DNA of 64,000 nucleotides from positions 19,754-83,753 of the forward strand of contig CAZXRB010000001.1 in assembly GCA_964642845.1 (NCBI GenBank), written 5' to 3'. The translations under genes and the position numbers were made by a program. Source of the stretch: an uncultured Nitrospira sp. GTDB taxonomy: Bacteria; Nitrospirota; Nitrospiria; Nitrospirales; Nitrospiraceae. Below, piece after piece: positions 30,254-53,640 of the stretch. Each line of letters starts with the position of its first letter. Positions within the stretch are counted from its first letter, which is position 1. Below the pieces are notes generated by a model. That model saw nothing but the letters and a program-made list of their open reading frames with translations. It searched no databases and was not told where the DNA came from.

Positions 30254-30844
30254 TTATGGGGCGGGAGGCTGGGACAGGCTGCCGCTCGGCGACGGTGGCG
30301 GGCCTCCGCTATTCGAGAGCATTTGCCCGGATCCGCTGCCGGCTGGAGGCGAGGCGCCGGGCGTCGCCGGGCCGGTGAGGACCAGTCCGCTGGCGCTGGA
30401 AGGATTCGGATGTTGGAACACCCAATCGGCGTAGCTTGCGCGGCCCTCGAAATGGCGAACTTCAAGCGGGAAATTACGCTCTTTGATCGGCCGGTCTTTG
30501 CTTTTGCTCCGCACCCCCATGATCCCGCCGGTGGGGGCGCGGACGAGGTCCCAATCTCCGTGCCCCATTGGATCAGGATAGACTTTTCTGAGAAACGGCT
30601 TGGGAGGACGGGTCAGATCCGCGAGGGTGGCCGGATAGACCTCGCCTGGCATGACGCGGCCGGCCTTCATCGTGGCTGAATAGAGGGCCAGCGCGTTTTG
30701 AATCTCGATGCCTTTGGCCAATAAATCGGCCTCCAACTCTCGCTGCACCATCGTCTTCCACTGGCGTGCGGCCCCGGACATGGCGAGTCCCATGAGGACG
30801 ATCGCCACCATGAGCATGACGTAGGTAAAACCGCGTTCGTTCAT
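30254..30844 (-). CDS. Prepilin-type N-terminal domain protein (pseudopilin) with Ser/Pro/Gly-rich C-terminal tail
   Basis: MNERG/FTYVMLMVAIVLMGLA is a class III signal-peptide-like leader plus hydrophobic helix, with Met rather than Glu at +5. The C-terminus is PNPSSASGLVLTGPATPGASPPAGSGSGQMLSNSGGPPPSPSGSLSQPPAP. Start set at ATG 30844. Confidence 0.7.
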   Translation of the reverse strand: MNERGFTYVMLMVAIVLMGLAMSGAARQWKTMVQRELEADLLAKGIEIQNALALYSATMKAGRVMPGEVYPATLADLTRPPKPFLRKVYPDPMGHGDWDLVRAPTGGIMGVRSKSKDRPIKERNFPLEVRHFEGRASYADWVFQHPNPSSASGLVLTGPATPGASPPAGSGSGQMLSNSGGPPPSPSGSLSQPPAP

Positions 30845-30911
30845 GGGTCGGCGGACGGCTGCTGCGCCCATGGGCAGTCTCCACTGCGCGTACGTGCTTA
30901 TAGGAGTCCTC

Positions 30912-31457
30912 TCACCCATAGAGGTCCGCGTTCACGAATTGCACTCCTTCTGCATCTTTCGATGAAAGGATTGGCGGAGCGCTGATCGGCCAGGTGATGC
31001 GGATCGTCGGGTCATTCCAAATGATGCAGCGCTCATGTTGGGGCGCCCAGTAGTCCGTTGTCTTGTAAAGGACTTCCGCTTGGTCCGACAACACCACGAA
31101 TCCATGGGCAAAACCCTCGGGGAGCCACAGTTGTTTCCTGTTCTCAGCGCTCAGCACGTCGCCCACCCATTGTCCAAACGTAGGGGACGCCCGGCGGAGA
31201 TCCACGGCGACATCGAAAATGGACCCGGAGACGACACGGATCAATTTCCCTTGCGGCTGGCTGATCTGGTAGTGCAGGCCACGCAAGACGTGCTTGAGTG
31301 ACAACGAGTGATTATCCTGAACGAACGCCACGGTTCTCCCAATGGCTCGACTGAATGCCCGCTCGTTAAAGCTTTCAAAGAAGAAGCCCCGATCGTCCCG
31401 AAAGACCTTCGGCTCGACGACGAGCACATCAGGGATGGCGGTCGGACGCACATTCAT
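30912..31457 (-). CDS. rfbC: dTDP-4-dehydrorhamnose 3,5-epimerase
   Basis: IPDVLVVEPKVFRDDRGFFFESF, with HYQ and the rest of the RmlC cupin. ATG 31457 chosen. A TTG at 31517 overlapping the rfbA stop is the alternative. Confidence 0.85.
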   Translation of the reverse strand: MNVRPTAIPDVLVVEPKVFRDDRGFFFESFNERAFSRAIGRTVAFVQDNHSLSLKHVLRGLHYQISQPQGKLIRVVSGSIFDVAVDLRRASPTFGQWVGDVLSAENRKQLWLPEGFAHGFVVLSDQAEVLYKTTDYWAPQHERCIIWNDPTIRITWPISAPPILSSKDAEGVQFVNADLYG

Positions 31458-31513
31458 CGTGAGCGATTTCGGCTGCGCGGCTGGCGGTCCTACCCGACCG
31501 GCCGCGCCTGCGT

Positions 31514-32395
31514 TCAAAACACCGGCTCTTTCAGCACTTGCAGCAGGTACCGTCCATACCCGTTCTTCAAGAGCGGTTGGGCCAGTTGTTCGAGTTGGCC
31601 CGCGTCAATCCATTTATTGCGATAGGCGATTTCTTCGACACAGGCCACCTTCAGCCCTTGCCGGTGTTCGAGCGTCGCAATGAATTGGCTCGCGTCCAAC
31701 ACCGACTCGTGCGTTCCGGTATCCAACCAGGCATATCCCCGGCCCATGATTTCGACGTGCAGCCGGCCCTGCTCGAGATACAATCGATTGAGATCGGTGA
31801 TTTCCAGCTCTCCGCGCGCCGACGGCTTCAATTGCTTCGCCAGCGCCACCACCTGGCCATCGTAAAAATAGAGCCCGGTGACGGCATAGTTCGATTTTGG
31901 AACGGCGGGCTTCTCTTCCAGATTGAGGACCTGCCCTCCCGCGGTGAACTCGACGACGCCGTAGCGCTCGGGATCCTGTACATGGTAGGCAAAAACCGTT
32001 GCGCCGTCACGGCGGGCCATCGCACGACCAAGCAGTTGAGGAAGATCGTGACCGTAAAAAATATTGTCGCCCAAGATCAGCACCGAGGGGTCGTGGCCGA
32101 TGAACGATTCTCCGATGATGAACGCGTGCGCCAGCCCGTCCGGAGAGGGTTGCTCCGCGTAGGACAATCGCAATCCCCACTGTTCCCCGCTGCCCAGCAA
32201 CTGTCTGAACCGCGGCGTATCCTGGGGCGTGGAGATGATCAGGATGTCTCGAAGCCCGGCCAGCATGAGGGTGCTGAGGGGATAATAGATCATCGGCTTG
32301 TCGAACACGGGGAGCAACTGTTTGGATACCGCCAACGTAGCCGGATGGAGCCGCGACCCGGTGCCGCCCGCCAAAATGATGCCTTTGCGCGTCAT
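31514..32395 (-). CDS. rfbA: Glucose-1-phosphate thymidylyltransferase
   Basis: [38 protein letters not shown] is the RmlA signature. Confidence 0.95.
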
Positions 32396-33294
32396 AGAAC
32401 CCCCTGTGCGGCAAGTTCATCCAGACAGCGGCGAAGGTGAAACCGCCAATCGGGCAAATGGACGCCGAACGTGTGGGTCACCTTCGCCGTATTCATCCGC
32501 GAATTCTTGGGCCGTTGTGCGGGCAGCGGATAGGCCTCCGTCGGGATGGGCGCCACGGCGTCCGGTGCGGCCTTCAACGCGACGCCTCGCTCCTTCGCCA
32601 AGGTCAACACATAGCGCGCGTACTCGTGCCAGTTTGTTTCGCCGGCTGCCACCAGATGATACGTCCCGCTGAAGCGCTCCCCCTGACCGCTTTCTGCCAC
32701 GCGGTGCAGCGCCACCGCCGTGACGTCCGCCAGCAACTCCGCACTGGTCGGCGCGCCCCATTGATCCGCCACGACGTTCAGTGTGTCCGTTTCCTTGGCG
32801 AGCCGGATGATCGTTCTCGCAAAGTTCTTCCCTCGCGCGGCGAACACCCAACTGGTTCTGAAGATCAGATGTTTCGGCTGGCGGCTGCGGAGCGCCTCTT
32901 CCCCTTCCCATTTGGTGCGGCCGTAGACCGAGAGCGGATGCGCCGCATCCTCTTCGGTGTAGGGCGCGGGGTTCGTTCCATCAAAGATGTAATCGGTCGA
33001 GTAGTGGATCACCCAGGCACCGAGCCGCCTGGCTTCTTCCGCCAACACGCCGACGGCTTCGGCATTGATCCGCCGGGCTTTCTCAGGCTCCGCTTCCGCT
33101 TGATCCACCGCGGTATAGGCGGCCGCGTTCACAATGGCGTCGGGGCGGTGGCTCCGAATCCAATCCCGCAGGCGGTCGAGACGTTCCAAATCCAATTCAT
33201 ACTGCTCGCTCGCCACCACATCCCCGACGGTCGCGAGCGACCGCTGCAGTTCCCATCCAACCTGCCCTTCTTTTCCAAGCAACACGATTTTCAT
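32392..33294 (-). CDS. rfbD: dTDP-4-dehydrorhamnose reductase
   Basis: [25 protein letters not shown] and YGRTKWEGE are RmlD motifs. ATGA overlap with the rfbB stop at 33291..33294. Confidence 0.9.
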
Positions 33295-34352
33295 AGCCTG
33301 TATTGTTGTTCCACCCAACGACGATAGGCTCCGCTGGTCACATTGCGGACCCATGCCTGATGGTCCAGGTACCATCGGACCGTCTTCCGTATCCCGCTCT
33401 CGAACGTTTCAGAAGGCTTCCATCCCAATTCGCGCTCGATTTTGTCCGCGTTGATCGCGTACCGGCGGTCGTGGCCGGGTCGGTCCTCCACAAAGATGAT
33501 CTGACTCTCGTACCGTCCCCCGTCCGTTTTCGGATGCAGCTCGTCCAGAATGCCGCAGACCGTCCGCACGACGTCGAGATTCACCCGCTCGTTTTTCCCG
33601 CCGATGTTGTAGGTTTCGCCAACCCGGCCGGCTTCGAGCACACGGCGGATCGCGGCACAGTGGTCTCCGACATAGAGCCAATCGCGCACTTGCTGGCCAT
33701 CCCCGTACACCGGCAACGGCTTGCCAGCCAACGCGTGATGAATCATCAAGGGAATGAGCTTCTCTGGAAATTGGAACGGCCCATAGTTGTTGGAGCAGTT
33801 GGTGGTCAGGACCGGCAATCCGTACGTGTGATGGTAGGCCCGGACAAGATGGTCAGCCGCCGCCTTGCTGGCGGAATACGGACTATTGGGCTCATACCGA
33901 TGCCGCTCGGTAAAGGCCGGGGCGTCCTTTTCGAGCGAACCGTACACCTCGTCGGTGGAGACATGAAGAAAGCGAAAGGACGTCTTCGCCGCACCGGACA
34001 GGCCGGTCCAATACGCGCGCACGGTGTCGAGCAGGCGAAAAGTGCCCACGATATTCGTGTGGATGAAATCCTGGGGTCCGTGGATCGACCGATCCACATG
34101 GCTTTCCGCCGCAAAGTTCACGACGGCCCGCGGCGCATGCTCCGTCAGCAGCCGGGCCACGAGCGCGGTATCGCCGATGTCTCCCAAGACGAACTGATGG
34201 CGGCGATCGCCTTGTACCGATGCCAGGTTTTCAAGGTTGCCCGCATAGGTCAGCTTGTCGATGTTGATCACCACCTCGTCGTGGTGTCCCAACCAGTCCA
34301 AGACAAAATTCGACCCAATGAATCCGGCACCGCCGGTAACGAGGATGGCCAT
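33291..34352 (-). CDS. rfbB: dTDP-glucose 4,6-dehydratase
   Basis: [32 protein letters not shown] and PGHDRRYAI are RmlB motifs. Confidence 0.95.
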
Positions 34353-34449: not shown

Positions 34450-35034
34450 TTACTGTTGTGCCGGTTCCTCCGACAGCGGCAGCGTATGATCGATTCGCGC
34501 GCCCGTATCCCGGATCGTCACACTGTCCGGCGTGATGGTCTTGAGCACGAGATGATCTTCGACCCGCTCTCCCACCTTGACGACCACGACTTCTTCATTC
34601 TTGCTCAAGACGGCCATATCTTTTTTCTTCTGCCGCTGGTCGCCGAGCCGGAGAAAGCCGAGATACCGATATTGCCCCAGCTCCAGCGTGCTGGCTTGCT
34701 GCGCCAGCGTGTGCTCGGACACCGGTTCAGCCGCCTCCGCAGCTGCTTCGTTGGCCATCGGCAGCGTTCCGTCCGGGCGGGGCACCGCAAAGATGTTGCG
34801 CGGCGTCGTAAAGGTGGCCTCGCGCTGGGTGCGTGCGGCGTCGAGCAAGGCGAGATTGACCCGCAGGCCACCCGGCGTTTCCCGCCCGGACACCCCGGAC
34901 GACGGCGGACCGGACACATTGGTGAGCGGGACGCGTATCGGCTCTTGGAAAGATCCCCACTGCCACCAGGCCAATCCCGCCCAGAGCAGCCCCAGCGCGG
35001 CCAGCAAAAATTCCTTTTTCCTGAACAGCGTCAT
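34450..35034 (-). CDS. PilP/GspC-like periplasmic component (single N-terminal TM plus C-terminal beta domain)
   Basis: N-terminal anchor FLLAALGLLWAGLAWW. The C-terminal YRYLGFLRLGD...AVLSKNEEVVVVKVGERVEDHLVLKTITPDSVTIRD resembles the PilP/GspC HR beta-sandwich. ATGA overlap with the preceding gene. Confidence 0.5.
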   Translation of the reverse strand: MTLFRKKEFLLAALGLLWAGLAWWQWGSFQEPIRVPLTNVSGPPSSGVSGRETPGGLRVNLALLDAARTQREATFTTPRNIFAVPRPDGTLPMANEAAAEAAEPVSEHTLAQQASTLELGQYRYLGFLRLGDQRQKKKDMAVLSKNEEVVVVKVGERVEDHLVLKTITPDSVTIRDTGARIDHTLPLSEEPAQQ

Positions 35035-35597
35035 GGCACCGCTCCCCGAGGCGGCGTGCCGGCCGCTTCCGCGCGCAAGTAGGTGGCGATCTTGATGTTG
35101 AAGGTCAGGCTCTGATCCGGCTGCGCCATGGAAGAGCTCAACTCCAAATCTTCAATGAACAACAGTTCTTCCGCGGTCTCCAAATCGTAAATGAACCGCC
35201 GCAAGTCTTCATAGCGCCCCGTCATCGATCCCTGCAGCAGCCCTTTGCTGGTATGCGGCACCGCGGTCGATTCCGTCCGGTACGACAGGGCTGGCAACGT
35301 CACACGGTCGCGCTTCGCTTCTTCGGAAATCCCCAAGGCCAAGGGTGCAAAGTCCCGCTCCGCCGGCAGCACGGCCCAGACCTGGCCCAGATCCTTCTTG
35401 GCTTTTCTCGCCTCGCGATGATGAGTGAGTGTTTGGCGCGCTGACGCCCACTCCTGTTCCAACCGCGCGCGGTCGCTTTCCATGACCACCGCCTGGTGCA
35501 GCCAAAGCCACAGAAGGAGCAGGCCGCTGGCGATGCCGACCCAGGGCAGCAGCGGGGCAACGGGTTGCTGGAGCAGGCGGAGAAGGCGATCGGCCAT
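35031..35597 (-). CDS. PilO/GspM-like inner-membrane component
   Basis: MADRLLRLLQQPVAPLLPWVGIASGLLLLWLWL (one TM), then a coiled-coil segment and a C-terminal ferredoxin-like part (GRYEDLRRFIYDLE...LFIEDLEL). Position is right after the PilN-like gene. The track ORF (to 36047) is an over-extension. Confidence 0.55.
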   Translation of the reverse strand: MADRLLRLLQQPVAPLLPWVGIASGLLLLWLWLHQAVVMESDRARLEQEWASARQTLTHHREARKAKKDLGQVWAVLPAERDFAPLALGISEEAKRDRVTLPALSYRTESTAVPHTSKGLLQGSMTGRYEDLRRFIYDLETAEELLFIEDLELSSSMAQPDQSLTFNIKIATYLRAEAAGTPPRGAVP

Positions 35598-35599
35598 CG

Positions 35600-36217
35600 C
35601 TATATCCCTTCCCGGCGATAACGCAGGCGCACCTCGAATTCCACCAGTCCGTTTGATCCGACGCGGTGCTGCGCCAAGACGGGCTCCTTGAAGGTGGGAT
35701 GGTCTTGGAGTCCCACGGTGAACGCCGTGATGTCTTCCAATGTCACCGCGGTTCCGAGCAGATGCACGCTGGTGCCTCCCGCATCCAAACGCACGCTGCT
35801 CAAGGCCAGGCGAGGCGGAATCGCTTGCTCCAAGCCGGTCAGGAATTTCGTCCACGAGAACATCCGCTTTTCCAACAGCTGATTGGCCATGGCCACTTCC
35901 GTAGGCAACCGGCGCAGCGATGCCTCGGACAGATCGATGCCCTCCTGCGCGGCCTCCGCAATCAGTTGCGCGTCTTGCTGGCGCACGCGCGCCAGTTCCG
36001 CGCGCAGGGTCCGGATTTCTTGATAGCCCATGAACGCGCGCCCGCAATCCCAGAGAACGCCCATCACGATCAGCACGCAGAGCGCGATGAAGGCCAGCCG
36101 GGCGGGCGCAATCGCGGGGCGGTAGCGGCTGCTGAGGTTAATGGTGAAGACCCGCCGGCTCCCTCCTGGGACAAGCCTCTCCAACAGCGCTCCACTTCCG
36201 AACCCTCGCCGAAACAT
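35600..36217 (-). CDS. PilN-like inner-membrane component
   Basis: The N-terminal FTINLSSR resembles the PilM-binding INLLP motif. It is followed by one TM (LAFIALCVLIVMGVLW), a coiled coil and a Fimbrial-assembly-like C-terminus. Start at ATG 36217, 2 nt after the PilM-like stop. Confidence 0.6.
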   Translation of the reverse strand: MFRRGFGSGALLERLVPGGSRRVFTINLSSRYRPAIAPARLAFIALCVLIVMGVLWDCGRAFMGYQEIRTLRAELARVRQQDAQLIAEAAQEGIDLSEASLRRLPTEVAMANQLLEKRMFSWTKFLTGLEQAIPPRLALSSVRLDAGGTSVHLLGTAVTLEDITAFTVGLQDHPTFKEPVLAQHRVGSNGLVEFEVRLRYRREGI

Positions 36218-36219
36218 GG

Positions 36220-37209
36220 TTACGCCACCCCCGCCATCGCCGCCAACGCCGCCATGCTGCGATGACTCTTGGCGGCGCCCCAGCCCAGCGCCTGAAGCGC
36301 TCCCCACCCCACTTGCTCGACCGAGAGATCCAACCCCGCTTCCACTTTCGCCTGTAAGACCGAGAGATCGCCGTCGGCGCAGATCACGGCTTCCTTCACG
36401 AGGGCCCTGGGGTACCGTTGCTGGCAGACATCGAGCGAGGCGCCGCATTCTTCAATGATTTTATTGAGCATCTCCGTCTCCGTCACGACGGACGTCGCCT
36501 CGCCGGGCAACAGCTTGCAGCGGTAGAACAGCAGTCGACCTCGCTGGAACACCATGGTGGTCAGCGCGCGATCCGCCACGTTGACCCAGAGAAAATCGCG
36601 CCGGTGCCATGCCGACCGGCCGGCGGCTCTGCGCCACAACTCGAACAGCTGCACACTGGTGACGCTGACATCGAGGGGAATCAATCCCGCGGATTCACAG
36701 AGCGATTCGTATTGGCCCAGCACTGACTCCTGAATCGCCACCGCGAAGACCGTGCGGGCGGCGTCCGCCTCCGCACCGTCGAAAACTTGATAGGCGACCT
36801 TGGCGCCCGCCAGCGGGAACAGTTGCTCCTGGCCGAGGCGCCAGCGGATCAGCGCCTCACGTTCGTCCGGCCGCGGCGGCAGCTGATCCAATTGAAGGAC
36901 GACCGCCCGCACGGCGGCGTCGGGCAGGAGGAGCACGATCGGACGCGGCAGTTCCTCGACCCATACCCGCTCACCGAAGCGCAGGCCCGGCGCCGGGCCG
37001 GCCAGAGAGCGAATCCTGGTTTCGACCATGGCAGGATCGGACATGTTCGGCTCGGCGGGGGACGGCTTCACGGCTCCCTCGGGAAGCGGCGACAGGGCGC
37101 ATCGCGACCGCGAGCTTCCGCGCCAGGTACGCCCGGCTTCGGCCCATGCCACGGCGTCGGCGCCGATTTTCAGGCAACGGCGCGGACGGCGCCTGGCCCA
37201 ATCCCACAT
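36220..37209 (-). CDS. PilM/GspL-like cytoplasmic actin-fold component
   Basis: 329 aa soluble protein immediately downstream of the ATPase and upstream of PilN/O-like genes. The pattern LKIGADAV...LPDAAVR...FAVAIQESVLGQYESLCESAGL...DVSVTSVQLFEL is PilM-like. Confidence 0.6.
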   Translation of the reverse strand: MWDWARRRPRRCLKIGADAVAWAEAGRTWRGSSRSRCALSPLPEGAVKPSPAEPNMSDPAMVETRIRSLAGPAPGLRFGERVWVEELPRPIVLLLPDAAVRAVVLQLDQLPPRPDEREALIRWRLGQEQLFPLAGAKVAYQVFDGAEADAARTVFAVAIQESVLGQYESLCESAGLIPLDVSVTSVQLFELWRRAAGRSAWHRRDFLWVNVADRALTTMVFQRGRLLFYRCKLLPGEATSVVTETEMLNKIIEECGASLDVCQQRYPRALVKEAVICADGDLSVLQAKVEAGLDLSVEQVGWGALQALGWGAAKSHRSMAALAAMAGVA

Positions 37210-37214
37210 CTCGG

Positions 37215-38942
<1,728 letters not shown>

Positions 38943-38985
38943 GGATGCTCCTGTGCGCTTGCGCTCAGCTGCATACCGCTCGCTC

Positions 38986-40200
38986 TCAACCCACCGTGCC
39001 GGCCATTTGGAAGACCGGCAGGTACATAACAATGACAATCCCGCCCACCAACACCCCCATGACGAGAAGCAGCGCCGGCTCGATCCAGGTGGTAACTTGC
39101 GTCAGCCTCGTGTCGAGGTCGGCCTCATAGAATTCGGCGACGTCCTTCAGCATGGTTTCCAACGAGCCGGTTTCTTCGCCGACGGACAACATTTCAATGG
39201 CGAGCTTGGGCAACACGGCCGGCCGGTCCAGGGCGGCCGCGAGTGTGGTGCCTTCCCGAATTTCGTTCACCGCCCCCCCCATTCCCTGAGCCACCCACCG
39301 GTTGGAGACCGCGCCCCGCGCGATCTGCAACGCATCGACCAAGGGTGTGCCGCCGGCTAAGACCGTGCCGAGCGTGCGGGTAAGCTGGACGGTGTTGTGC
39401 TTCACTGCAAGCGGCCCCAGCAGCGGCAGGTGGAGGAGCAGTCGATCGATGGCAAGATGCCCGGCCGCGGTGGCGTAGTAGGCCCGCAGCGCCACCAGTC
39501 CCGCAACCAGGAGAGCGCCGGCCGGCAGAAGGTACGTCTCGGCATGCTGCACGACATCTAGCAAGACTTGCGTGGCCCATGGCAAGGTCTTGGCCGACTC
39601 CCCATAGACCGAAACGAACGTCGGCATCACATAGATCAACAGAAACGCGATCACCGCCACACCGATGAGAACCAAGAACAGGGGATACGACAAGGCTTTC
39701 AAGACCTTTTGTCGCAGTCCGATCATCAACTTGAGATAGGAGACGTAGCGTTGGAGCACTTCAGGAAGATTCCCGGACTGCTCGCCCGCTCGCACCGTGG
39801 CGATGTACAGCTCCGGAAAGTAGGTCGGATGTTTGGCCAGCGCGTCCGAGGCGGCCGCGCCTCCCCGAATATCTTCACGCACCATACGCAAGGCCTGCTG
39901 AAACCCGGCATGGCCCGCCCGCTCGATCAACAGATCCCACACGCGCAGGACCGGCAAGCCTGACTTGACCAGCGCGAGCAGCTCCTGATTGAAGACAAGA
40001 AATTCGCCGAGGGGCAGCCGGCCCCAAGACCAGGACTTTGTCGGCGCAGCCGCCGCGCCGAGGCCACGGCGCTGAAGTTTAAAGACCAACAGCCCCTGGG
40101 ACTCAAGCTTGGCCCGGACACGGGATTCGTCGTCGCCTTCGATTTGGCCATCGAGCGTGGTACCATCCGGGCGAGCCACTCTGTAGGCAAAGACGGCCAT
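38986..40200 (-). CDS. GspF/PilC-family platform protein
   Basis: 404 aa with two T2SSF repeats (FNQELLALVKSGLPV..., LTRTLGTVLAGGTPLVDAL...) and three TM segments. Confidence 0.9.
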   Translation of the reverse strand: MAVFAYRVARPDGTTLDGQIEGDDESRVRAKLESQGLLVFKLQRRGLGAAAAPTKSWSWGRLPLGEFLVFNQELLALVKSGLPVLRVWDLLIERAGHAGFQQALRMVREDIRGGAAASDALAKHPTYFPELYIATVRAGEQSGNLPEVLQRYVSYLKLMIGLRQKVLKALSYPLFLVLIGVAVIAFLLIYVMPTFVSVYGESAKTLPWATQVLLDVVQHAETYLLPAGALLVAGLVALRAYYATAAGHLAIDRLLLHLPLLGPLAVKHNTVQLTRTLGTVLAGGTPLVDALQIARGAVSNRWVAQGMGGAVNEIREGTTLAAALDRPAVLPKLAIEMLSVGEETGSLETMLKDVAEFYEADLDTRLTQVTTWIEPALLLVMGVLVGGIVIVMYLPVFQMAGTVG

Positions 40201-40226
40201 TCAACACCTCGGCTGGAATAACGCCG

Positions 40227-40922
40227 CTATTCACTCGGCGTGCGCGTGGGATCGACGAGCCACAACGCCTGCCCGACTTCAATGCGCGGATCCGCGAGTT
40301 GATTGAAGGCCATCAGGCGTTTGAGCGGGACATGGTACCGCTGAGCGATGCTCCACAGCGTGTCTCCCGGCTTGATGACGATACGTGCCGGGGCAGCGGT
40401 CGGCTGGGGTTCTCTGACCGGGACTCCGTTCATCACCGCCGCGTCGGTCCTGGCTGGGCCGGGCCGCCGCGCAGCAGGCGGGAAGGCGGCGGGAGCGATC
40501 CCTGCGCGACTTTCGGAAGACGCCTTCCCGAGTTTGGAGAGTTGCTGCTGGAGCTGCTTCATCTGCTGGTGCAGCACAGCGCCCGTTTTGGCCACCCGTT
40601 CCCGCTCCGCCCGCGAGCTGGCCAATTCCTCGCGTTGCAAATCAATCACCTGGCGGGCCTCCAGCAGCCGCCGCTCCGCCTCGCGCACGCGGCCTTCCAA
40701 TTGGGCGCGCGCGATCTGCGCGTCGGCCAGTTCCTGCCGGCGAGCCTCCAATTCCGCGCGCAGCTCCGCGATGGTCCGCTGGGCATCCCGCACGCTGGTT
40801 TTCAGCGTATCCACCGTCAACTGGAGATCGGACACCTCGGGTTCGACCATCGGCTCCAGCGGACTGCAGGCGAGCGCCGCCAGAACGCCTGTCCCCATCA
40901 GACCGACGTGGAGCGACCGCAT
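40227..40922 (-). CDS. Coiled-coil protein with C-terminal LysM peptidoglycan-binding domain, possible lipoprotein
   Basis: LysM motif IKPGDTLWSIAQRYHVPLKRLMAFNQL...GQALWL. There is a long heptad-like stretch (LRAELEARRQELADAQIARAQLEGRVREAERRLLEARQ). The N-terminus reads GVLAALACS. ATG 40922 is preferred over 40946, which overlaps the upstream gene. Confidence 0.75.
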   Translation of the reverse strand: MRSLHVGLMGTGVLAALACSPLEPMVEPEVSDLQLTVDTLKTSVRDAQRTIAELRAELEARRQELADAQIARAQLEGRVREAERRLLEARQVIDLQREELASSRAERERVAKTGAVLHQQMKQLQQQLSKLGKASSESRAGIAPAAFPPAARRPGPARTDAAVMNGVPVREPQPTAAPARIVIKPGDTLWSIAQRYHVPLKRLMAFNQLADPRIEVGQALWLVDPTRTPSE

Positions 40923-40939
40923 CAGGGAGGACTGACGGC

Positions 40940-41338
40940 TTACCATTTGTTATACGGCGTCCCGTTGGTTCCCACGAGATCGGACCCGGAGTAGACGTCG
41001 AAGACGCCGCCTTCCGTCGGCTCGGTGATTTCCTGCCACGTGGTCGCTGAGTTCGTGAACGGATCTTTCGGTATTGCCCTCAAGTATCCGGCGGCCACGA
41101 GCCCTTCCAACGACGGTGGATATTTCCCCTTGTCGGCGCGATGCTGATCCAGCAAGTCACGCAGCGTGAAGAGATCGTGCCGCAACACCGTTTCCCGCGC
41201 CTTGATGAGCGATGTCTGATAGGACGGCACCGCGATGGTAGCCAAAATCCCGATAATCGAGACGACGATCATAAGCTCAACCAACGTAAAGCCCCTCTCG
41301 CCTCCGCCTGTTCTACCAATCCCGGTACTTGGTGCCAT
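40940..41338 (-). CDS. GspG-like major pseudopilin
   Basis: ERG/FTLVELMIVVSIIGILATIAVPSY (Glu at +5), followed by a GspG-like body (LRDLLDQHRADKGKYPPSLEGLVAAGYLRAIPKDPF). Confidence 0.8.
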   Translation of the reverse strand: MAPSTGIGRTGGGERGFTLVELMIVVSIIGILATIAVPSYQTSLIKARETVLRHDLFTLRDLLDQHRADKGKYPPSLEGLVAAGYLRAIPKDPFTNSATTWQEITEPTEGGVFDVYSGSDLVGTNGTPYNKW

Positions 41339-41819
41339 CGAGCGCGATCGCCTCGCTTTGCGTCATGACGTCATAGACGTCTTCGCCACACCAACTGGAC
41401 GGCTTGGGCGAATCCTTATAACAACGCAGGACCCAGTCCGCCTTCCCCGTGAGCGGATCCAGCGGCAGGACGCGCAGATACCGCCGGATCGTCGTCCCCC
41501 TGACTGTCGCCTCTTCTCCCGTCAATTTCACGCCGAGCAGCACGTCCAGGGATTTCGGGTAGCCGTAGATGCTGGCGACCTCTTTGCACGTGAGCTTGTT
41601 CTTGATGCACACCGGGCCGAGCAGCACCTCGCCGTCGCGGTTCCATTCGAGCTTGAAGGTATCGATGGCGTTGCGTACGGTCCGCAGATGCTGGCGCAGT
41701 TCGAGTTCCTGCGCGCGCTTGGTCGACACTTTGCTCAACGGCATGGCGACGGAAGCCAGAATCACGATAATGGTCATCGTGACGAGCAACTCCAGCAGCG
41801 TCACGCCGTCGTCTCTCAC
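41313..41819 (-). CDS. Pseudopilin (prepilin-type N-terminal domain)
   Basis: MRDDG/VTLLELLVTMTIIVILASVAMPL with Glu at +5. 168 aa. 4-nt overlap with the secretin stop. Confidence 0.65.
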   Translation of the reverse strand: MRDDGVTLLELLVTMTIIVILASVAMPLSKVSTKRAQELELRQHLRTVRNAIDTFKLEWNRDGEVLLGPVCIKNKLTCKEVASIYGYPKSLDVLLGVKLTGEEATVRGTTIRRYLRVLPLDPLTGKADWVLRCYKDSPKPSSWCGEDVYDVMTQSEAIALDGTKYRDW

Positions 41820-44146
41820 CGGACCCTCACGACTCCCTTGCCGATCTCGGCAGAGGAGGAGACGGCTTCACCGGCCGTCTCCGTCAGCTCGACGCGAACC
41901 GGAGAGACGCCCGGCGCCTTCGCCGTGAACGTGACGTTCGCGGATCGGGGCGCCCGGTGCAAGCCGCCGGTCATCCGAAACGCAATCATCCCCTCACGCT
42001 CGCCGTCCTGTTCCTGCGTGATGGCTTCCGCTTGCTGCAGGCGTTTGAACTGCAAGATTTTTGGATCGTATTCGAGCAAGAAGACGTCGCCCTCGGTTTC
42101 GCGGAGCCGGCCGTCCACAACCGCCAGCTTCACTTCTGTCCCGGATTGAACCGCCGTTTCATCCGGCTGGATCGCCAGCGCGGGGCCCGGCGTCGCCAAC
42201 TGGCTATACGTCTGGCCGCGAGCCCGCCCTTCGGTCGGTTGGACGGTGGCCTTCGCCGGCACCACCGATTTACCAGCCTGTCCATGAACGGGATATGACG
42301 AGACCGGCTTGGCCGCCGGGGAAAACACCGGGCTCGTGGCATAGCTGAATTCCGTCCCAGACCAGAACGCCTGATTAGCCGGTCCCGGCGGCGACATGGT
42401 TTCGGTGATGTGCGGGGTGATGGTCAAAATAACTTCCGTCGTGACACGTTCCGTTTTGAACGAACTGAGCAAATTGCCGATCAACGGCAGATCGCCGATC
42501 CATGGGATGGTGACGCGGGTGCGGCGATCCTCTTCCTGGATCAGCCCGCCCAATACGATGGTTTCTCCGTCACGCATGTTGAGCGTCGTCTCCGCCGAGC
42601 GGTTCCCGAAACGGAATTGTTGAATCGGCGGCGAGGCCTGGAGGGTCACCTGGTCCCCGATCCGTATCACTTCGATTTTCATCTTCAGCGACAGCTCGTT
42701 CCCCAGCCGGATCGACGGCTCGACGGTCAGCTTCACGCCGGTATCGCGGAATTCGATCGAGGTCACGGTGGAGGTGGTCGGTACCGCGCCGGTGGCCGCC
42801 TGGCCGGGCAGCACGTTCGTCGTCGAAAGGAGGATGGGCTGCTTGTCCCCGATATTGATCTCGGCTTTCTTGTTGTTCATGACGCGCACTTTAGGGGCCG
42901 CCAAGGTTTTCGCGTCGGACTCCTGTTTGAAGAAATCCAGCAACACGGTGGTGGGCAAGCGGAACATATAACTGTCCGGCCCCAAGCTGGTCAGCTGCCG
43001 GTAGGTCATCTGCACCGGATCGGCGCCCAGCGCGCCAGTGAACCCGGGCGGAATCAATCCGGCTCCCGCCTGTTTGGGATAGTTCAACCCATAGGTCTGG
43101 TTCTTGGTTCGATTGACTTCCAAGACCTCCAGGTCGAACAGCACTTCAGGCTCCTGCCGGTCGTTCGCCAAAATGATTTTTTCGGCCAACTCCAATTTTT
43201 CCGGCTGATCGCGAATCACAATGGCGTTCAACTGCTCGTTTGCATGGAGCCGCTTGGAATCCAGCATGCCCTTCAGCAACACCAGCATGTCCTTGGCTTT
43301 GGCGCTGGACAGGTAAAACGTGCGGATCATGAGATCCTGATACTGCTCTTGCTTCTGCTTAGTGTTGGGACTGACGATCAAGACGCCGGGGGACACGACG
43401 CGCGAGAAGAGGCTGTTGCTGTTCAGAATCAGATTGAGCGCATCTTCAAAGGGCGTATCTTGGACCGAAATCGAAATGGGATCGTTCCGGACATCCTTAT
43501 CAAAAATCACCGTAAAGCCGCCCGCCTTGGCCACGCCTTCCAGCACTTCCTTGATCCCGGCGTTGCGGAACTTCAGTGTGACCGGCTGCTTGAGCCGATC
43601 GTTTCTCATGACCGCTTGTTGCTCCTCGGTCAGGCGGCTGATGCTCTCCAGCGGCTCTCGAAACGTCGGATCCAATTCGGCGGCTCGGGCAAAGCCGTTC
43701 ATCGCCTCTTCCGTGCGGCCGAGCTGCGCGAGCCGTTCCGCTTCCCGGTAGTGCGACCGCGCTTCTTTCAAGCGGAGCGCTTCGGACAGGCTCGCCTGAT
43801 GCTCCGTGCTCGCGGGCTCGATGGTCAGGGCCCGCTTGAATTGATCGATGGCTTGATCGAGCTGATGCTCTTTGAGAAACGCCCGCCCCCGTTCTTCGTA
43901 CAGAGCTGCAGCCCGCTCTCTGGCCAGCGCGTATTTGCTCTGAAGCGAGGGATCGAAGGGATCGTCCTTGAGGGCCTGCTTATAGGCAAGACTCGCTTCT
44001 TCCCAATTGCCGGCGGCCAGATGCTGGTCACCTCGCGTGGCATCGGACGAAGTCAGCAAGGCGCATGCGGCTGAAGACGCCACCAGTAGCGCCAGTCCGA
44101 CACGCTTCCCGCAAACAGCGACGGCTTGCAACATCATCGACCCCAT
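41816..44146 (-). CDS. Secretin (GspD/PilQ family) with N-terminal TPR region and C-terminal cohesin-like extension
   Basis: Secretin C-domain: VLFDLEVLEVNRT..., TIVLGGLIQEEDRRTRVTIPWIGDLPLIGNLLSSFK...EVILTITPHI. N-terminal TPR-like repeats span aa ~38-165 (GNWEEASLAYKQALKDDP..., LDQAIDQFKRALTIEP..., EEAMNGFARAAELDP). A ~195-aa tail follows the secretin core. The leader reads LLVASSAAC. Confidence 0.85.
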   Translation of the reverse strand: MGSMMLQAVAVCGKRVGLALLVASSAACALLTSSDATRGDQHLAAGNWEEASLAYKQALKDDPFDPSLQSKYALARERAAALYEERGRAFLKEHQLDQAIDQFKRALTIEPASTEHQASLSEALRLKEARSHYREAERLAQLGRTEEAMNGFARAAELDPTFREPLESISRLTEEQQAVMRNDRLKQPVTLKFRNAGIKEVLEGVAKAGGFTVIFDKDVRNDPISISVQDTPFEDALNLILNSNSLFSRVVSPGVLIVSPNTKQKQEQYQDLMIRTFYLSSAKAKDMLVLLKGMLDSKRLHANEQLNAIVIRDQPEKLELAEKIILANDRQEPEVLFDLEVLEVNRTKNQTYGLNYPKQAGAGLIPPGFTGALGADPVQMTYRQLTSLGPDSYMFRLPTTVLLDFFKQESDAKTLAAPKVRVMNNKKAEINIGDKQPILLSTTNVLPGQAATGAVPTTSTVTSIEFRDTGVKLTVEPSIRLGNELSLKMKIEVIRIGDQVTLQASPPIQQFRFGNRSAETTLNMRDGETIVLGGLIQEEDRRTRVTIPWIGDLPLIGNLLSSFKTERVTTEVILTITPHITETMSPPGPANQAFWSGTEFSYATSPVFSPAAKPVSSYPVHGQAGKSVVPAKATVQPTEGRARGQTYSQLATPGPALAIQPDETAVQSGTEVKLAVVDGRLRETEGDVFLLEYDPKILQFKRLQQAEAITQEQDGEREGMIAFRMTGGLHRAPRSANVTFTAKAPGVSPVRVELTETAGEAVSSSAEIGKGVVRVR

Positions 44147-44298: not shown

Positions 44299-45594
44299 TT
44301 AGAGTCGCCAGTACTTGATCGTGTCCGGCACGGCGGCAGCGTCAAAGACACTCTTCACGTCGACGAGGACGCCGTTCTTCTGATGGCGTAAGGGTTTCAA
44401 CAATTCTTTCGGTCCCATCTCGACGTATCGCCGATGCGCAACGGCTAGGATGACGCCATCGACAGCGGTGACGCGGTCCCACTCGCTCAGGTGAATGCCG
44501 TATTCCGCAACGGCCTCTTCCGGCTCCGCGATGGGATCATGCACAACGACCTCGACGCCATATTCACGGAGTTCATTGATGATGTCCGGCACTTTGCTGT
44601 TCCGGAGGTCGGGGACATTCTCCTTAAACGTCAGCCCCAAGACCGCCACCTTCAGTTCGTTTACAGGGCGAGATAGTTGGCTCAAGAGCTTCATCGTCTG
44701 CTCAGCGACAAATTTCCCCATGCCGTTGTTGATCCGACGCCCGGCCAAGATCACTTGCGGATGGTATCCCACGGATTCCGCCTTGGCCGTCAGATAATAG
44801 GGGTCAACACCGATGCAGTGCCCACCGACAAGACCAGGAGAGAACTTGAGGAAATTCCATTTGGTCCCGGCCGCTTCCAAGACCGATTTGGTATCGATTC
44901 CCAAACGATGGAAGATCAGCGCCAGCTCATTCATCAGCGCGATGTTCAGATCCCGCTGGGTGTTCTCGATCACTTTCGCCGCTTCCGCCACCTTAATGGA
45001 CGGAGCCCGGTGAATGCCGGCCTTGACCACCAACGCATAGGTCTGCGCCACGATCTCCAATGATTCGCCGTCCTGAGCGGACACCACTTTCACGATCTTT
45101 TCCAGCGTGTGTTCCTTATCGCCCGGATTGATCCGCTCGGGCGAGTATCCGATTTTGAAATCCACACCGGCTTTCAGGCCTGAGGTTTTTTCCAAAATGG
45201 GCAGGCACACTTCTTCCGTCGCTCCCGGATAGACCGTCGATTCGTAGACTACGATCGTCCCGGGAGAGAGATTCCGGCCGATGAGCTCGGATGATTTCCG
45301 GAGCGCGGTGAGATCGGGCTGCAAGGCCTCGTTGATCGGCGTGGGGACGGCCACAATGATGAAGTCGGCCGTTTTCAAATCCGTTGGCTCGCACGTAAAC
45401 CGAATGTGGGCCGACGTGAGATCTTGCGAGGACACTTCGCCGGTCCGGTCGACACCGGACCGCAACTCGTCAATTTTCGTCTTGTTGATGTCAAACCCGA
45501 CTACAGGGGCGTGTTTGCCGAACGCCACGGCAATCGGGAGACCTACGTAGCCGAGGCCCACGACGGCGATAGAATGCGGTTTCTCTGTTCTCAT
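44299..45594 (-). CDS. Nucleotide-sugar 6-dehydrogenase (UDP-N-acetyl-hexosamine dehydrogenase, WbpO/TviB/CapL-like)
   Basis: IAVVGLGYVGLPIAVAFGK Rossmann N-terminus, GYSPERINPGD, catalytic GGHCIGVDPYYL, and a C-terminal UDP-binding domain (LGLTFKENVPDLRNS). Confidence 0.9.
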   Translation of the reverse strand: MRTEKPHSIAVVGLGYVGLPIAVAFGKHAPVVGFDINKTKIDELRSGVDRTGEVSSQDLTSAHIRFTCEPTDLKTADFIIVAVPTPINEALQPDLTALRKSSELIGRNLSPGTIVVYESTVYPGATEEVCLPILEKTSGLKAGVDFKIGYSPERINPGDKEHTLEKIVKVVSAQDGESLEIVAQTYALVVKAGIHRAPSIKVAEAAKVIENTQRDLNIALMNELALIFHRLGIDTKSVLEAAGTKWNFLKFSPGLVGGHCIGVDPYYLTAKAESVGYHPQVILAGRRINNGMGKFVAEQTMKLLSQLSRPVNELKVAVLGLTFKENVPDLRNSKVPDIINELREYGVEVVVHDPIAEPEEAVAEYGIHLSEWDRVTAVDGVILAVAHRRYVEMGPKELLKPLRHQKNGVLVDVKSVFDAAAVPDTIKYWRL

Positions 45595-46230: not shown

Positions 46231-48264
46231 ATGTTGGTCATAGTGTCAGCTCGCGTATCAACGATGTTTCTTCTCTTGCTCTCAGCCTCCATCCTCGTGA
46301 CAGCGCTCGACTGTGCCATGTCTTGGGCACAGCAGCCGATACAGACGGGGAAGCCGGCTGGCACAGCAACTCATCAGCCCGGCGGCGGTATTCCGAAGGC
46401 CTCAGAACGAAAGGCCCATAAACTCATCCGTAAACCTTCGATGCCGAAAACAGGGGCGCTGGCCGGCACGGTCACTCAGCCTCTTCTACAAGGCAGCGAC
46501 AGCCCAGCGGGATCGGCGAGCACTCCAGTGCAGGATTCCATAAGTAAGGAGCCGTCCGCGACCGGGAAAAGCGCACCGGCTTCGGCACCGGCTTCTCTTC
46601 AGACGAGCACTGGGATCATGCAAGCCGCACCCGCCAGCATGACGGGCGCCATCAGTTCACCGACAACGGCTACCGCACCTTCAGCGTCACCAAATTCGCG
46701 AACTGGGCTCACGGCGGCGGCATCAGGCGGACCGGCCCCTTCGGGCGTCGGTTTGCCGCCGCAACTGGGCCGTTTGTTGTCCGAACTCCCGGACATGAAC
46801 CAAATGGTCGCGCCAGCTGCTTCATCCCCTACTCCGCCTCCGCCATCGAATCCCGGAATCGGAGTGACCCCGCCCAGTTTGACGTTTACTGCGCAACAAA
46901 GCGGCGGTAATCCGGCTGCACAAACTCTCACGATCAGCAATACCGGAGGCGGGACACTGACCTGGACAGCCAGCGACAATGCCGGTTGGCTCACAGTCAG
47001 TCCGGCATCTGGTACGGCCCCCGGTGCCATCACGGCGTCGGTGAATCTCGGCACTCTCGCTCCAGGCACCTATAACGCCAGCGTGACCGTCAGCGCGTCA
47101 GGCGCTACGAGCGTCACTGTGCCGGTGAGCTTTACTGTCACGGCTGCGCCAGCACCACCGGCCATCGGGACAAGCCCGACGAGCCTGTCCTTCTCCGCAC
47201 AACAAGGTGGAGGTAACCCCGCTTCGCAAACCGTCAGCATCAGCAATACAGGCGGAGGAACGCTGGCGTGGTCAGTCACCGACAATGCCGCTTGGCTGAC
47301 GCTGTCTCCTGCGTCAGGCACGGGCAACGGAGGGTTCACCGCCACGGTATCGACCAGCTCGCTGGCAGCGGGCACGTACAACGCCGCCGTCACAATCAGC
47401 GCGACCGGTGCGACGAGTGTATCAGTGCCCGTAACACTGACCGTGGCGCCGGCACCGACGACGATCACGCTCACCCCTTCCACGCTCAGCTACTCAGCGG
47501 TCCAAGGCGCAGCGAATCCGGCGGCCCAATCGGTGACCGTCACATCCAACGGCAGTTGGACGGCAAGCACGAACACCTCGTGGCTCACGGTCAGCCCTGC
47601 CTCTGGATCTGGAAATGGCTCGGTAGCGGCAACCGCCAACATCGCGAGCCTCGCGGCCGGAACGCATAACGCGACCGTCACCGTGACGGGCGGAGGCGTC
47701 ACAAGGACCGTGAGCGTCACGCTGACCGTCTCGGCGGCCTCGCTAACGCTGAGCCCCTCTAGTCTCACCTTTACCGCGACACAAGGTGCGGCCAATCCGG
47801 CCAACCAGTCGATCACCCTCACTTCCAACGGAAGTTGGACGGTGACGGACAACGCGAGTTGGCTGAGTGTCAGCCCAGCATCCGGGTCGAATAATGGAAC
47901 CCTGACAGTCAGTGTCAATACAACGAATGCCACCGTAGGGAACAATGCCGGTACCATCACGGTCACCGGCGGCGGCATCACGCGGACCGTCAGCGTGATG
48001 CTTACGCTCAATGCGCCGGCCACCTCCTCGGCCACATTGACATGGAATGGGAATACCGAGTCTGATCTCGAAAGCTATCGGATCTACCGTTCTACGACAC
48101 CAGGGGTCTATGGAGCGGCTTTGGCCACGGTGCCGGCCGGCACCGTGACCTATCAAGCGACCGGCTTGCAGACGGGAACGACATACTACTTTACCGTTAC
48201 CGCTGTAGACGCAGCGGGCAACGAAAGTTCCCGCTCCAATGAGGTCAGCAAAAGTATTTTTTAG
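46231..48264 (+). CDS. Secreted protein: low-complexity Ala/Ser/Pro/Thr linker, four BACON-like Ig repeats, C-terminal fibronectin type III domain
   Basis: Signal peptide MFLLLLSASILVTALDCAMSWAQQ. There are four ~95-aa repeats with the pattern NPA.Q..T..S.G.W....N..WL.VSPASG.G.G...V.V (BACON-type). The FN3 reads LTWNGNTESDLESYRIYRS...TYYFTVTAVDAAGNES. AGGAGG lies 9 nt before the ATG. Confidence 0.8.
   Translation: MLVIVSARVSTMFLLLLSASILVTALDCAMSWAQQPIQTGKPAGTATHQPGGGIPKASERKAHKLIRKPSMPKTGALAGTVTQPLLQGSDSPAGSASTPVQDSISKEPSATGKSAPASAPASLQTSTGIMQAAPASMTGAISSPTTATAPSASPNSRTGLTAAASGGPAPSGVGLPPQLGRLLSELPDMNQMVAPAASSPTPPPPSNPGIGVTPPSLTFTAQQSGGNPAAQTLTISNTGGGTLTWTASDNAGWLTVSPASGTAPGAITASVNLGTLAPGTYNASVTVSASGATSVTVPVSFTVTAAPAPPAIGTSPTSLSFSAQQGGGNPASQTVSISNTGGGTLAWSVTDNAAWLTLSPASGTGNGGFTATVSTSSLAAGTYNAAVTISATGATSVSVPVTLTVAPAPTTITLTPSTLSYSAVQGAANPAAQSVTVTSNGSWTASTNTSWLTVSPASGSGNGSVAATANIASLAAGTHNATVTVTGGGVTRTVSVTLTVSAASLTLSPSSLTFTATQGAANPANQSITLTSNGSWTVTDNASWLSVSPASGSNNGTLTVSVNTTNATVGNNAGTITVTGGGITRTVSVMLTLNAPATSSATLTWNGNTESDLESYRIYRSTTPGVYGAALATVPAGTVTYQATGLQTGTTYYFTVTAVDAAGNESSRSNEVSKSIF
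46861..48024 (+). repeat. Four tandem coding repeats (~285-300 nt each) encoding BACON-like domains
   Basis: Repeat units at aa ~211-310, 311-410, 411-503 and 504-598 of the 677-aa protein. Units 1/2 and units 3/4 are the closest pairs. Confidence 0.8.
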
Positions 48265-48423: not shown

Positions 48424-48572
48424 TTACAAACGCGGCGATCTCGTTTATTCATTAGTAGAATCAGAAACTGTCTAAGCAGAACTGATGAGGAGAAAGAACG
48501 GGTTGGAGACGGGCACGCGGGGCCACCTCCAAGGAAAGACAAAGACAGTTGCACAACGGAAGGAGTGAACTG

Positions 48573-51097: not shown

Positions 51098-51123
51098 AGA
51101 AGCCTGCGCCTCGATTTACCGTT

Positions 51124-53636: not shown

Positions 53637-53640
53637 CGCC

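Follow-up and report, generated by a model that had tools for sequence, protein, structure and literature searches.

An uncultured Nitrospira sp. (assembly GCA_964642845.1, contig CAZXRB010000001.1) carries ten consecutive minus-strand genes for a type IV filament machine, and these genes, together with the family of systems to which they belong, are the subject of this work. We refer to the whole stretch of 64,000 nucleotides that was analysed (positions 19,754 to 83,753 of the contig, with a G+C content of about 62%) as the window. The ten genes occupy window positions 34450-44146, where a preliminary description made from the sequence had placed them, and all are intact. Consecutive members overlap by up to 26 nt or are separated by up to 43 nt, a spacing that fits a single operon. 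Pfam and NCBIfam searches gave family matches for eight of the ten genes, the PilM-like and PilP-like proteins having no significant match, and with these two assigned through a predicted fold and a family profile, respectively, the parts list of the preliminary description is borne out in full. Comparison of the encoded proteins across phyla indicates that the machine is a member of a widespread and conserved lineage rather than being unique to the window genome, and that this lineage is real and distinct from the canonical classes of type II secretion system (T2SS), type IVa pilus (T4aP) and mannose-sensitive haemagglutinin (MSH) pilus.

The first gene (41816-44146, minus strand) encodes a secretin of 776 aa (PF00263, 5.5e-36; Secretin_N, 2.9e-9). 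The protein opens with a lipoprotein-type signal (Cys28), followed by TPR repeats (approximately aa 38-160), an N0/STN-like domain and a single Secretin_N domain, and continues with the pore domain (aa 407-581), a Pro-rich linker and a cohesin-like beta-sandwich (approximately aa 655-776). Pfam and NCBIfam found no AMIN domain on it, the TPR domain being present instead. It falls below the cutoff of each of the NCBIfam secretin models, scoring 156 bits against 351 for GspD, 130 against 284 for PilQ and 94 against 250 for MshL, with a weak likeness to HofQ models (81 bits, cutoff 554), and it is near-equally similar to the solved structures of GspD (69.6 bits) and Myxococcus xanthus PilQ (66.6 bits). 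A lipobox-like motif is found in 123 of 135 full-length representatives of the secretin family. The usual pilotin of T4aP secretins is a separate TPR lipoprotein (PilF, PilW or Tgl), and because a module of this type is here fused to the secretin, the arrangement suggests that the secretin is self-piloting.

The C-terminal domain of the secretin was modelled by AlphaFold2 (AF2) with a pLDDT of 84-95, and its best Foldseek matches are cohesin modules (E about 1e-5). A profile built from Nitrospira sequences only, and hence of limited sensitivity, detected the domain in 32 of 82 loci and in 25 of 150 representatives. The domain (window 41819-42181) is much less conserved than the remainder of the secretin; among the more divergent of the Nitrospira homologues listed its identity is 42-46%, against at least 70% for the secretin overall. 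The N. moscoviensis secretin is 83% identical to that of the window, and the best 120 secretin database clusters, from Nitrospira, are 70-99% identical to it. The orthologue is named 'putative secretion system W protein GspD-like' in one NCBI Nitrospira record.

Three prepilin-like proteins accompany the secretin. The gene for p168 (41313-41819, minus strand; N_methyl, 8e-6; leader MRDDG/VTLLE) has a GTG start that overlaps the secretin stop codon, and a homologue lies directly 3' of the secretin gene in 69 of 76 loci. Glu5 is present in the window protein and in all 70 of 70 family members, and the mature length is about 153 aa (150-154) among the members listed. The window p168 has four cysteines and the proteobacterial members listed have almost none. 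The second protein, pG (40940-41338, minus strand; N_methyl; leader ending GERG/FTLVE), is a GspG-like pseudopilin that passes the T2SSG model (PF08334; 22.8 bits, cutoff 21) and falls short of the GspG equivalog TIGR01710 (64 bits, cutoff 88.9). Of 84 family members 83 have Glu5, neither the window protein nor the members listed contain cysteine, and the family profile finds its best E. coli match in E. coli GspG. The candidate major subunit is pG.

The third pilin-like gene, p221 (30254-30919, minus strand; leader ending NERG/FTYVM), was recognised from its sequence and lies outside the range of the preliminary description, which gave the ten genes correctly and missed this one. Met replaces Glu at position +5 and the tail is rich in Pro and Ser; none of the 43 family members with a recognisable motif has Glu5, and the protein is 37% identical to Ralstonia 'TklG'. 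Between the PilP and p221 genes of the window lie rmlB, rmlD, rmlA and rmlC (30912-34352, minus strand; Pfam), for dTDP-rhamnose synthesis, with rmlC overlapping p221 by 8 nt. Since p221 directly follows the PilP gene in Candidatus Nitrospira kreftii and in other Nitrospira loci, rmlBDAC looks to have been inserted into the filament operon in the lineage of the window; it is no part of the machine, and is probably co-transcribed with the operon in this genome. T2SSs have a Glu5-less subunit, GspK, and by analogy p221 may serve as a cap or initiator subunit, although the missing Glu5 is the sole trait that the two have in common. The set of pilins is thus not 'minimal', as had been supposed: there are three pilin-like genes per system in Nitrospira and usually four in Proteobacteria, among them the conserved Glu5-less subunit. 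A Wzy_C/O-antigen-ligase-like gene lies elsewhere in the window at 51124-52482 (PEP_O_lig_1, 136 bits, cutoff 188). The Wzy_C family includes the pilin O-oligosaccharyltransferases, and the Pro/Ser-rich tail, the rml insertion and this gene together raise the idea that p221 might be glycosylated.

Downstream of pG is the gene for a coiled-coil protein (40227-40946, minus strand) that has a lipoprotein-like signal and ends in a LysM domain (PF01476, 2.5e-15), a putative peptidoglycan anchor that was found in 18 loci, all from members of the Nitrospirota. The inner-membrane platform protein that follows (38986-40200, minus strand; 404 aa; T2SSF, 3e-57) belongs to the GspF/PilC family and reaches the cutoff of neither namesake (GspF 310 of 424 bits, PilC 287 of 700 bits); in a search of the PDB it matched M. 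xanthus PilC at 239 bits. The assembly ATPase (37215-38942, minus strand; T2SSE, 6e-130; MshEN, 5e-15) is 575 aa long if translation is taken to start at an ATG preceded by an AGGAG motif, the full open reading frame (ORF) reaching 39038, and its orthologue in Ca. N. kreftii is also of 575 aa. NCBIfam scores are 563 bits against a cutoff of 676 for PilB and 517 against 630 for GspE. Among solved structures the full-length protein matches PilB at about 440 bits, and its core matches deltaproteobacterial PilB at 364-373, Vibrio GspE at 341-356 and Thermus PilF at 335-338 bits. It carries two CxxC motifs (CQSC...CHDC) that are conserved in nearly all ATPases of the family, and an N-terminal MshEN-type domain that matches PilB, PilF and MshE. 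A model for the cyclic di-GMP (c-di-GMP) motif scores 34.1 against a cutoff of 38, and within the first 50 residues of the Nitrospira ATPases (window 38800-38942) both RLGxxLL arginines are replaced, giving SLGHVLV and NLGQTLM. Some gammaproteobacterial ATPases (loci L010, L020 and L021) keep the canonical tandem RLGEILL/RLGEVLL, and because they do so and Nitrospira does not, the motifs suggest that the ancestor may have been regulated by c-di-GMP and that Nitrospira may have lost or changed this control.

The last four genes of the block encode an alignment scaffold. The product of 36220-37209 (minus strand, 329 aa), predicted to be cytoplasmic and actin-like, has no match in Pfam or NCBIfam and 471 homologous proteins at E <= 0.001; of the 120 listed, the minority that carry an organism name are from Nitrospira or Nitrospiraceae. 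An AF2 model built with 27 orthologues (pLDDT 79, pTM 0.81) has PilM structures from Pseudomonas aeruginosa, Thermus and M. xanthus as its ten best Foldseek matches (E 1.5e-18 to 8e-15, TM 0.55-0.68), GspL cytoplasmic domains appearing from rank 31 on with E of 6e-8 or weaker, and the family profile matches M. xanthus PilM by sequence (5.7e-5). Fold prediction and profile together confirm the protein as a PilM homologue. The bitopic PilN homologue (35600-36217, minus strand; 205 aa; PF05137, 1e-5), whose Ca. N. kreftii orthologue has 202 aa, has an 'INL' motif immediately ahead of its transmembrane segment, and INL or INF is found in Nitrospirota and in several other members of the family; in T4aPs, PilN has a conserved INLLP motif at its N-terminus to which PilM binds. 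The PilO homologue (35031-35597, minus strand; 188 aa; PF04350, 2.5e-6) is related to GspM, with weaker matches to T2SSM_b and the NCBIfam GspM model. For the fourth protein (34450-35034, minus strand; 194 aa) the single sequence matches only T2SSC, below cutoff at 17.5 bits; a profile of 29 orthologues from several phyla picks out Neisseria PilP (4.3e-7 and 1e-6), with the GspC HR domain at no better than 0.19, so that by profile comparison it is confirmed as a PilP homologue. It should be noted that the family M, N, O and P profiles did not detect E. coli HofM/N/O/P or GspC/L/M even at E 10. Comparison with the E. coli scaffold proteins by sequence is therefore too weak, and evidence from folds and PDB profiles is needed.

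The hybrid character claimed for this machine is upheld by these assignments, which combine a T4aP-type PilM/N/O/P scaffold and a PilB/MshE-type ATPase N-terminus with short, GspG-like pilins of T2SS type. Several parts had also been described as missing, and within the window they are. No A24 prepilin peptidase is encoded there (searches with an Aliiroseovarius peptidase and with E. coli GspO returned nothing credible), nor was a second T2SSE-family ATPase or PilT-type gene found; NCBIfam identified no PilA-type major pilin. As for GspH/I/J/K, no pilin reached the GspH cutoff, and the GspI and GspJ models are not among the NCBIfam matches listed.

Distribution and conservation of the family

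A search with the secretin returned 897 cluster representatives at E <= 1e-30 from a database of 1.84 billion, and nearly all full-length matches among the best 150 gave alignments that reach from the TPR region through the pore domain. The same secretin type is encoded at no fewer than 593 loci, counting one genome per GTDB species. The carriers include Nitrospirota, Manganitrophaceae among them, as well as Gallionellaceae, Acidiferrobacterales, Burkholderiales, Thiohalophilus, Thiohalomonas, Ca. Thiodiazotropha, Microbulbifer, Rhodomicrobiaceae, Deltaproteobacteria and the candidate division FCPU426. The window encodes each of the parts that mark membership of this lineage, namely co-located F, E, M, N, O and P, a TPR-lipoprotein secretin, a p168-type pilin next to it, and GspG-like and Glu5-less pilins. 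We name it here the TPR-liposecretin filament family, a definition made in the present analysis that takes in the 'unorthodox T2SS' of Ralstonia discussed below.

Gene content was assessed by searching the ORFs of 80 loci with iterated profiles of the window proteins. Where both flanks were complete, E, F, M, N, O and P were all present at 18 of 25 loci, and the secretin and p168 stood alone at four of the 25 (two from Manganitrophaceae and two from other metagenome-assembled genomes (MAGs) of Nitrospirota). These isolated pairs (L042, L044, L056 and L078) have none of the E, F, M, N, O or P genes within 10 kb. Synteny of the full operon is preserved in Ca. N. kreftii, and the gene order in Nitrospira is Q-p168-pG-LysM-F-E-M-N-O-P-p221, Q being the secretin. 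Most of the proteobacterial loci sampled have instead F-E-M-N-O-P-Q-p168-pG-pG'-p221, although a few begin with the secretin or have an inverted F-to-O block, and the secretin-first order that the preliminary description had singled out as an oddity is therefore better seen as a permutation found in Nitrospirota.

Prepilin peptidases of the A24 family are encoded within the cluster only in Alphaproteobacteria (Aliiroseovarius plasmids and Rhodomicrobiaceae), and not in Nitrospirota, Betaproteobacteria or Gammaproteobacteria. The alphaproteobacterial peptidase gene is short (L083 10285-10761; also L039, L049 and L080), and in Aliiroseovarius it lies directly upstream of F. By family profiles the plasmid clusters of Aliiroseovarius crassostreae, which like Ralstonia solanacearum is a cultured carrier, are homologous to the window operon component by component; in their PGAP annotation M, N, O, P and the secretin are 'hypothetical', and one pilin is called GspG at the equivalog level.

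The depth of the lineage was gauged from its ATPases. Identity within the family across phyla is 43-55%, and the window ATPase is 39.7% identical to E. coli GspE and 39.5% to HofB, which are themselves 40.8% identical, and so is equidistant from the two. In a neighbour-joining (NJ) tree rooted on the PilT-like YggR, the 45 family ATPases were monophyletic in 100 of 100 bootstraps against two references, both from E. coli: GspE and HofB, a divergent T4aP ATPase. Phylogenetic placement of the ATPase had been proposed as a check on the novelty of the system, and at this sampling of references the tree shows a distinct clade about as deep as the T2SS/T4aP split.

Locus context and possible functions

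The operon sits inside an exopolysaccharide (EPS) or surface-glycan locus, with EPS genes on both sides. A UDP-glucose dehydrogenase gene, ugd (44299-45594), lies upstream and an epimerase gene downstream. Divergent from the operon, on the plus strand, are genes for two proteins with signal peptides: a 'choice-of-anchor D' protein with four BACON_2 domains and fn3 (46231-48264) and a PL14-like polysaccharide lyase (48549-49748), either of which is possibly a cargo or matrix protein. Farther upstream, 49961-63449 encodes the Wzy_C/O-antigen-ligase-like protein and glycosyltransferases of the GT4 family, two carbamoyltransferases accompanied by an SxtJ-like protein, GDSL esterases, and an amidotransferase that resembles AsnB. 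The BACON protein and ugd occupy the same positions in Ca. N. kreftii, where a polysaccharide co-polymerase (PCP) kinase and a priming transferase are near. Across 26 Nitrospirota loci the most frequent families in the flanks (141 ORFs) are nucleotide-sugar epimerases or dehydratases (nine ORFs), UDP-glucose dehydrogenases (four) and nucleotidyl transferases (three). Proteobacterial flanks are variable, with large Ig-like, TIG, PKD, BACON or Calx-beta proteins and an Rhs toxin at some loci and ligA, uvrB, uvrC, lysS or topA at others; because they vary, the EPS link looks like a feature of the Nitrospirota and not a property of the whole family. All-against-all clustering across loci gave no conserved cargo neighbour beyond the core gene set.

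Other observations on the window concern its surroundings. The two carbamoyltransferase genes (53641-58999) flank a gene without an assigned family and an SxtJ-family gene (56748-57182), in an arrangement reminiscent of the sxtI-sxtJ pair of saxitoxin clusters; since these genes lie in an EPS locus, their target is probably a sugar. A link to PEP-CTERM/exosortase systems was considered and rejected: the neighbouring AsnB-like, Wzy-like and GT4 genes are similar to families of the XrtA system without reaching their cutoffs, and the PEP-CTERM paper names no secretin or pilin partner. Two ORFs downstream of proA (25993-27768, 591 aa, and 25249-25941, 230 aa) have no match in Pfam or NCBIfam; Ca. 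N. kreftii has an ORF of 594 aa in the same position after proA. An Rfam scan of the whole window returned no riboswitch, the c-di-GMP type included, and no other RNA family, and promoter and terminator scans gave matches no more numerous than in shuffled sequence.

We favour, with moderate confidence, a reading in which the operon encodes a self-contained type IV filament machine whose short GspG-like pseudopilus secretes or displays proteins, which in Nitrospira would be matrix proteins. Its assembly logic, its lack of retraction and its cargo we infer from the parts and their setting. According to this model, the three prepilin-like proteins would be processed by a prepilin peptidase whose gene lies elsewhere in the genome, and the zinc-type, PilB/GspE-like hexameric ATPase, acting via the PilC/GspF platform, would polymerise pG into a short filament that the Glu5-less p221 starts or caps. 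PilM would bind the INL-containing cytoplasmic tail of PilN; PilN and PilO would span the inner membrane, and PilP would connect them to the secretin by way of its N0 domain. The secretin would pilot itself to the outer membrane by means of its lipid anchor and fused TPR domain, and in Nitrospira the LysM lipoprotein would tie the assembly to peptidoglycan. The pseudopilus, which we take to be non-retractile because no retraction ATPase is found in the window and because the pilins are short and T2SS-like, would then push folded periplasmic proteins out of the cell or display them on it. The neighbouring BACON/fn3 protein and PL14-like lyase are candidate Nitrospira cargo, with a possible role in matrix and aggregate formation.

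Several considerations weigh against this reading. Our search of the literature found descriptive mentions and no functional study of any member, the EPS context is confined to Nitrospirota with housekeeping genes often flanking the proteobacterial systems, and no cargo gene is conserved across the family. The absence of PilT holds for the window, and a gene of this type may lie elsewhere in the genome; MSH loci, too, encode neither a prepilin peptidase nor a retraction ATPase (PMC6668835). The PilB/MshE-type N-terminus of the ATPase would suit a true pilus equally well, and with two E. coli sequences as references the family ATPases could yet nest inside the diverse, paraphyletic T4aP grade.

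The strongest competitor, which we consider possible and on balance rather unlikely, is a true surface pilus resembling those of the MSH or T4aP type, extended by the PilB-like ATPase, retracted if at all by a PilT encoded elsewhere, and serving adhesion and aggregation in Nitrospira flocs and biofilms. The PilM/N/O/P scaffold and the ATPase N-terminal domain speak for such a pilus, as do the EPS/biofilm setting in Nitrospira and the canonical tandem RLGxxLL c-di-GMP motifs of some gammaproteobacterial members, and a single operon with a secretin, a TPR module and four pilins but no peptidase is MSH-like (PMC6668835). However, the pilins are short and GspG-like, and the PilA-type disulfide D-region is absent from the listed pG and proteobacterial p168 members, which have few or no cysteines. 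The secretin, moreover, scores lower with MshL (94 bits) than with GspD (156) or PilQ (130), the cluster has no MshM-like ATPase, Nitrospira has other residues in place of the arginines of the c-di-GMP motifs, and PilT was not found in the window.

The EPS setting can be read in another way, with the secretin acting as the outer-membrane conduit for the exopolysaccharide of the locus and the pseudopilus as a piston or gate-opener. In favour of this are the embedding of the Nitrospira operon among ugd, rmlBDAC and the Wzy-like, GT4, carbamoyltransferase and AsnB-like genes, and the PCP kinase and priming transferase that adjoin it in Ca. N. kreftii in stretches where no gene for an outer membrane polysaccharide export (OPX) protein or Wza was seen; a preprint (10.1101/2022.03.08.483542) reports, furthermore, that slime secretion depends on PilQ/GspD secretins in cyanobacteria and M. 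xanthus. We nevertheless regard it as improbable, for outside Nitrospirota there is no EPS linkage, an OPX gene may lie beyond the visible part of the EPS locus, and no mechanism is known by which a type IV filament machine would be joined to Wzx/Wzy polymerisation. Still less credible is that the operon encodes a pseudopilus for DNA uptake, or that it is cryptic and unexpressed. The weak likeness of the secretin to HofQ (81 bits, cutoff 554) would fit competence, but no comEA, comEC or dprA lies in the neighbourhood; the homologous Gsp and Hof systems of E. coli are annotated as cryptic, but here all operon genes are intact, the secretins of the best 120 Nitrospira clusters share 70% identity or more, and the same gene set has been retained from phylum to phylum, conservation that argues for purifying selection.

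A bolder proposal goes beyond the preferred model of protein secretion or display. The family might be a separate, ancient filament class on a par with T2SS, T4aP and MSH, in which a fused unit of TPR-liposecretin and cohesin-like domain, together with the 153-aa pilin that always accompanies it, would serve to export and anchor matrix polymers, the cohesin-like domain, in the periplasm, docking cargo or the polysaccharide machinery. We think this unlikely; were it true, the matrix polymers would be glycoproteins or exopolysaccharide itself, in the biofilms of chemolithoautotrophs.

Nitrospira are the main nitrite oxidisers of wastewater treatment and soils and grow as dense, matrix-embedded aggregates, so that a conserved envelope machine in an EPS locus is a concrete candidate for building or decorating the matrix. 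Iron and sulfur oxidisers (Gallionellaceae, Acidiferrobacterales, Thiohalophilus) have the same machine, as do symbionts, Rhodomicrobium, the oyster pathogen Aliiroseovarius on its plasmids and, in two copies, Ralstonia solanacearum. The PilM/N/O/P genes are labelled 'hypothetical' in the Ralstonia and Aliiroseovarius records, and recognition of the systems as one family provides a target for annotation models (TXSScan, NCBIfam) and makes their function testable in tractable hosts.

Comparison with known systems

The preliminary description matched this operon to none of the canonical T2SS, T4aP, T4bP, MSH, Tad or Com layouts. No component reaches the NCBI equivalog cutoff for T2SS, T4aP or MSH; the layout is nevertheless not unknown, the 'unorthodox T2SS' of Ralstonia belonging to the same lineage. 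With canonical T2SSs the window system shares a secretin, an E-type tetracysteine ATPase, an F platform, a GspG-like major pseudopilin, a pilin that like GspK lacks Glu5, and the absence, here within the window, of a retraction ATPase. It differs in having separate PilM, PilN, PilO and PilP proteins and no GspC, GspL or GspM, in lacking orthologues of GspH/I/J/K, in an ATPase N-terminus of PilB/MshE type where T2SSs have a GspL-binding N1E domain, and in a secretin with TPR, N0 and one N domain as opposed to N0-N3.

Resemblance to the T4aPs of M. xanthus, P. aeruginosa and Thermus lies in the PilM/N/O/P alignment complex, the PilB-type ATPase with its MshEN N-terminal domain and the PilC-type platform. 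The window system is unlike them in being a single operon with the TPR module fused to the secretin, and has, within the window, no PilA-type pilin and no PilT/PilU; it also lacks secretin AMIN domains, PilY1 and a FimU-PilVWXE set. The MSH pilus of Vibrio is similar in that one locus provides the scaffold (MshI/J/K being the PilM/N/O/P-like proteins), secretin, TPR module (MshN), MshEN ATPase, platform and about four pilins. Here, however, MshM, MshH, MshF, MshO, MshP and MshQ are absent, the pilins are GspG-like, the gene order is another, the secretin reaches only 94 of the 250 bits required by the MshL model and the c-di-GMP arginines have been lost in Nitrospira. In a survey covering the superfamily of type IV filaments, Denise et al. 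(2019, PMC6668835) describe the T4aP as a paraphyletic grade and place 884 systems in a 'generic' class, into which the TPR-liposecretin family presumably falls; the Nitrospirae entries found in their supplements are for the Tad system and not this machine. Literature searches for the system in Nitrospira found nothing specific, and those for 'tklG' returned peptide strings only.

The closest relatives had already been noticed in the Ralstonia solanacearum species complex, where two 'unorthodox T2SS' clusters, one on the megaplasmid and one on the chromosome, are mentioned by Li et al. (2016, PMC5080846, citing Genin and Boucher 2004). The megaplasmid cluster reads gspG-F-E, four hypothetical genes, pulQ, pulG, a hypothetical gene and tklG. 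Every component is homologous to one in the window: by family profiles the four hypothetical proteins are PilM, PilN, PilO and PilP, 'pulQ' is a TPR-lipoprotein secretin and is followed by the p168-like 'pulG', a pG-like pilin and the p221-like 'tklG', and the ATPase falls in the same NJ clade as that of the window. The differences are in arrangement and accessory parts. The Ralstonia order is G-F-E-M-N-O-P-Q-pilins, whereas the secretin comes first in the window; Ralstonia has one more GspG-like gene, located upstream, and lacks the LysM gene, the cohesin-like C-terminus is not detected by the profile built from Nitrospira, and the neighbours are a pectinesterase and a large hypothetical protein in place of EPS genes. 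A hypothetical gene of 1672 aa adjoins the megaplasmid copy (L084 2518-7536), an rhsB gene lies beside one of the Ralstonia clusters (PMC6428702), and in one proteobacterial MAG a gene for an Rhs-repeat/endonuclease toxin adjoins the system (L027 24-2465). On this sequence evidence the window system is of the same lineage as the 'unorthodox T2SS', which had previously been noted descriptively in Ralstonia and is here recognised as part of a family that extends across phyla.

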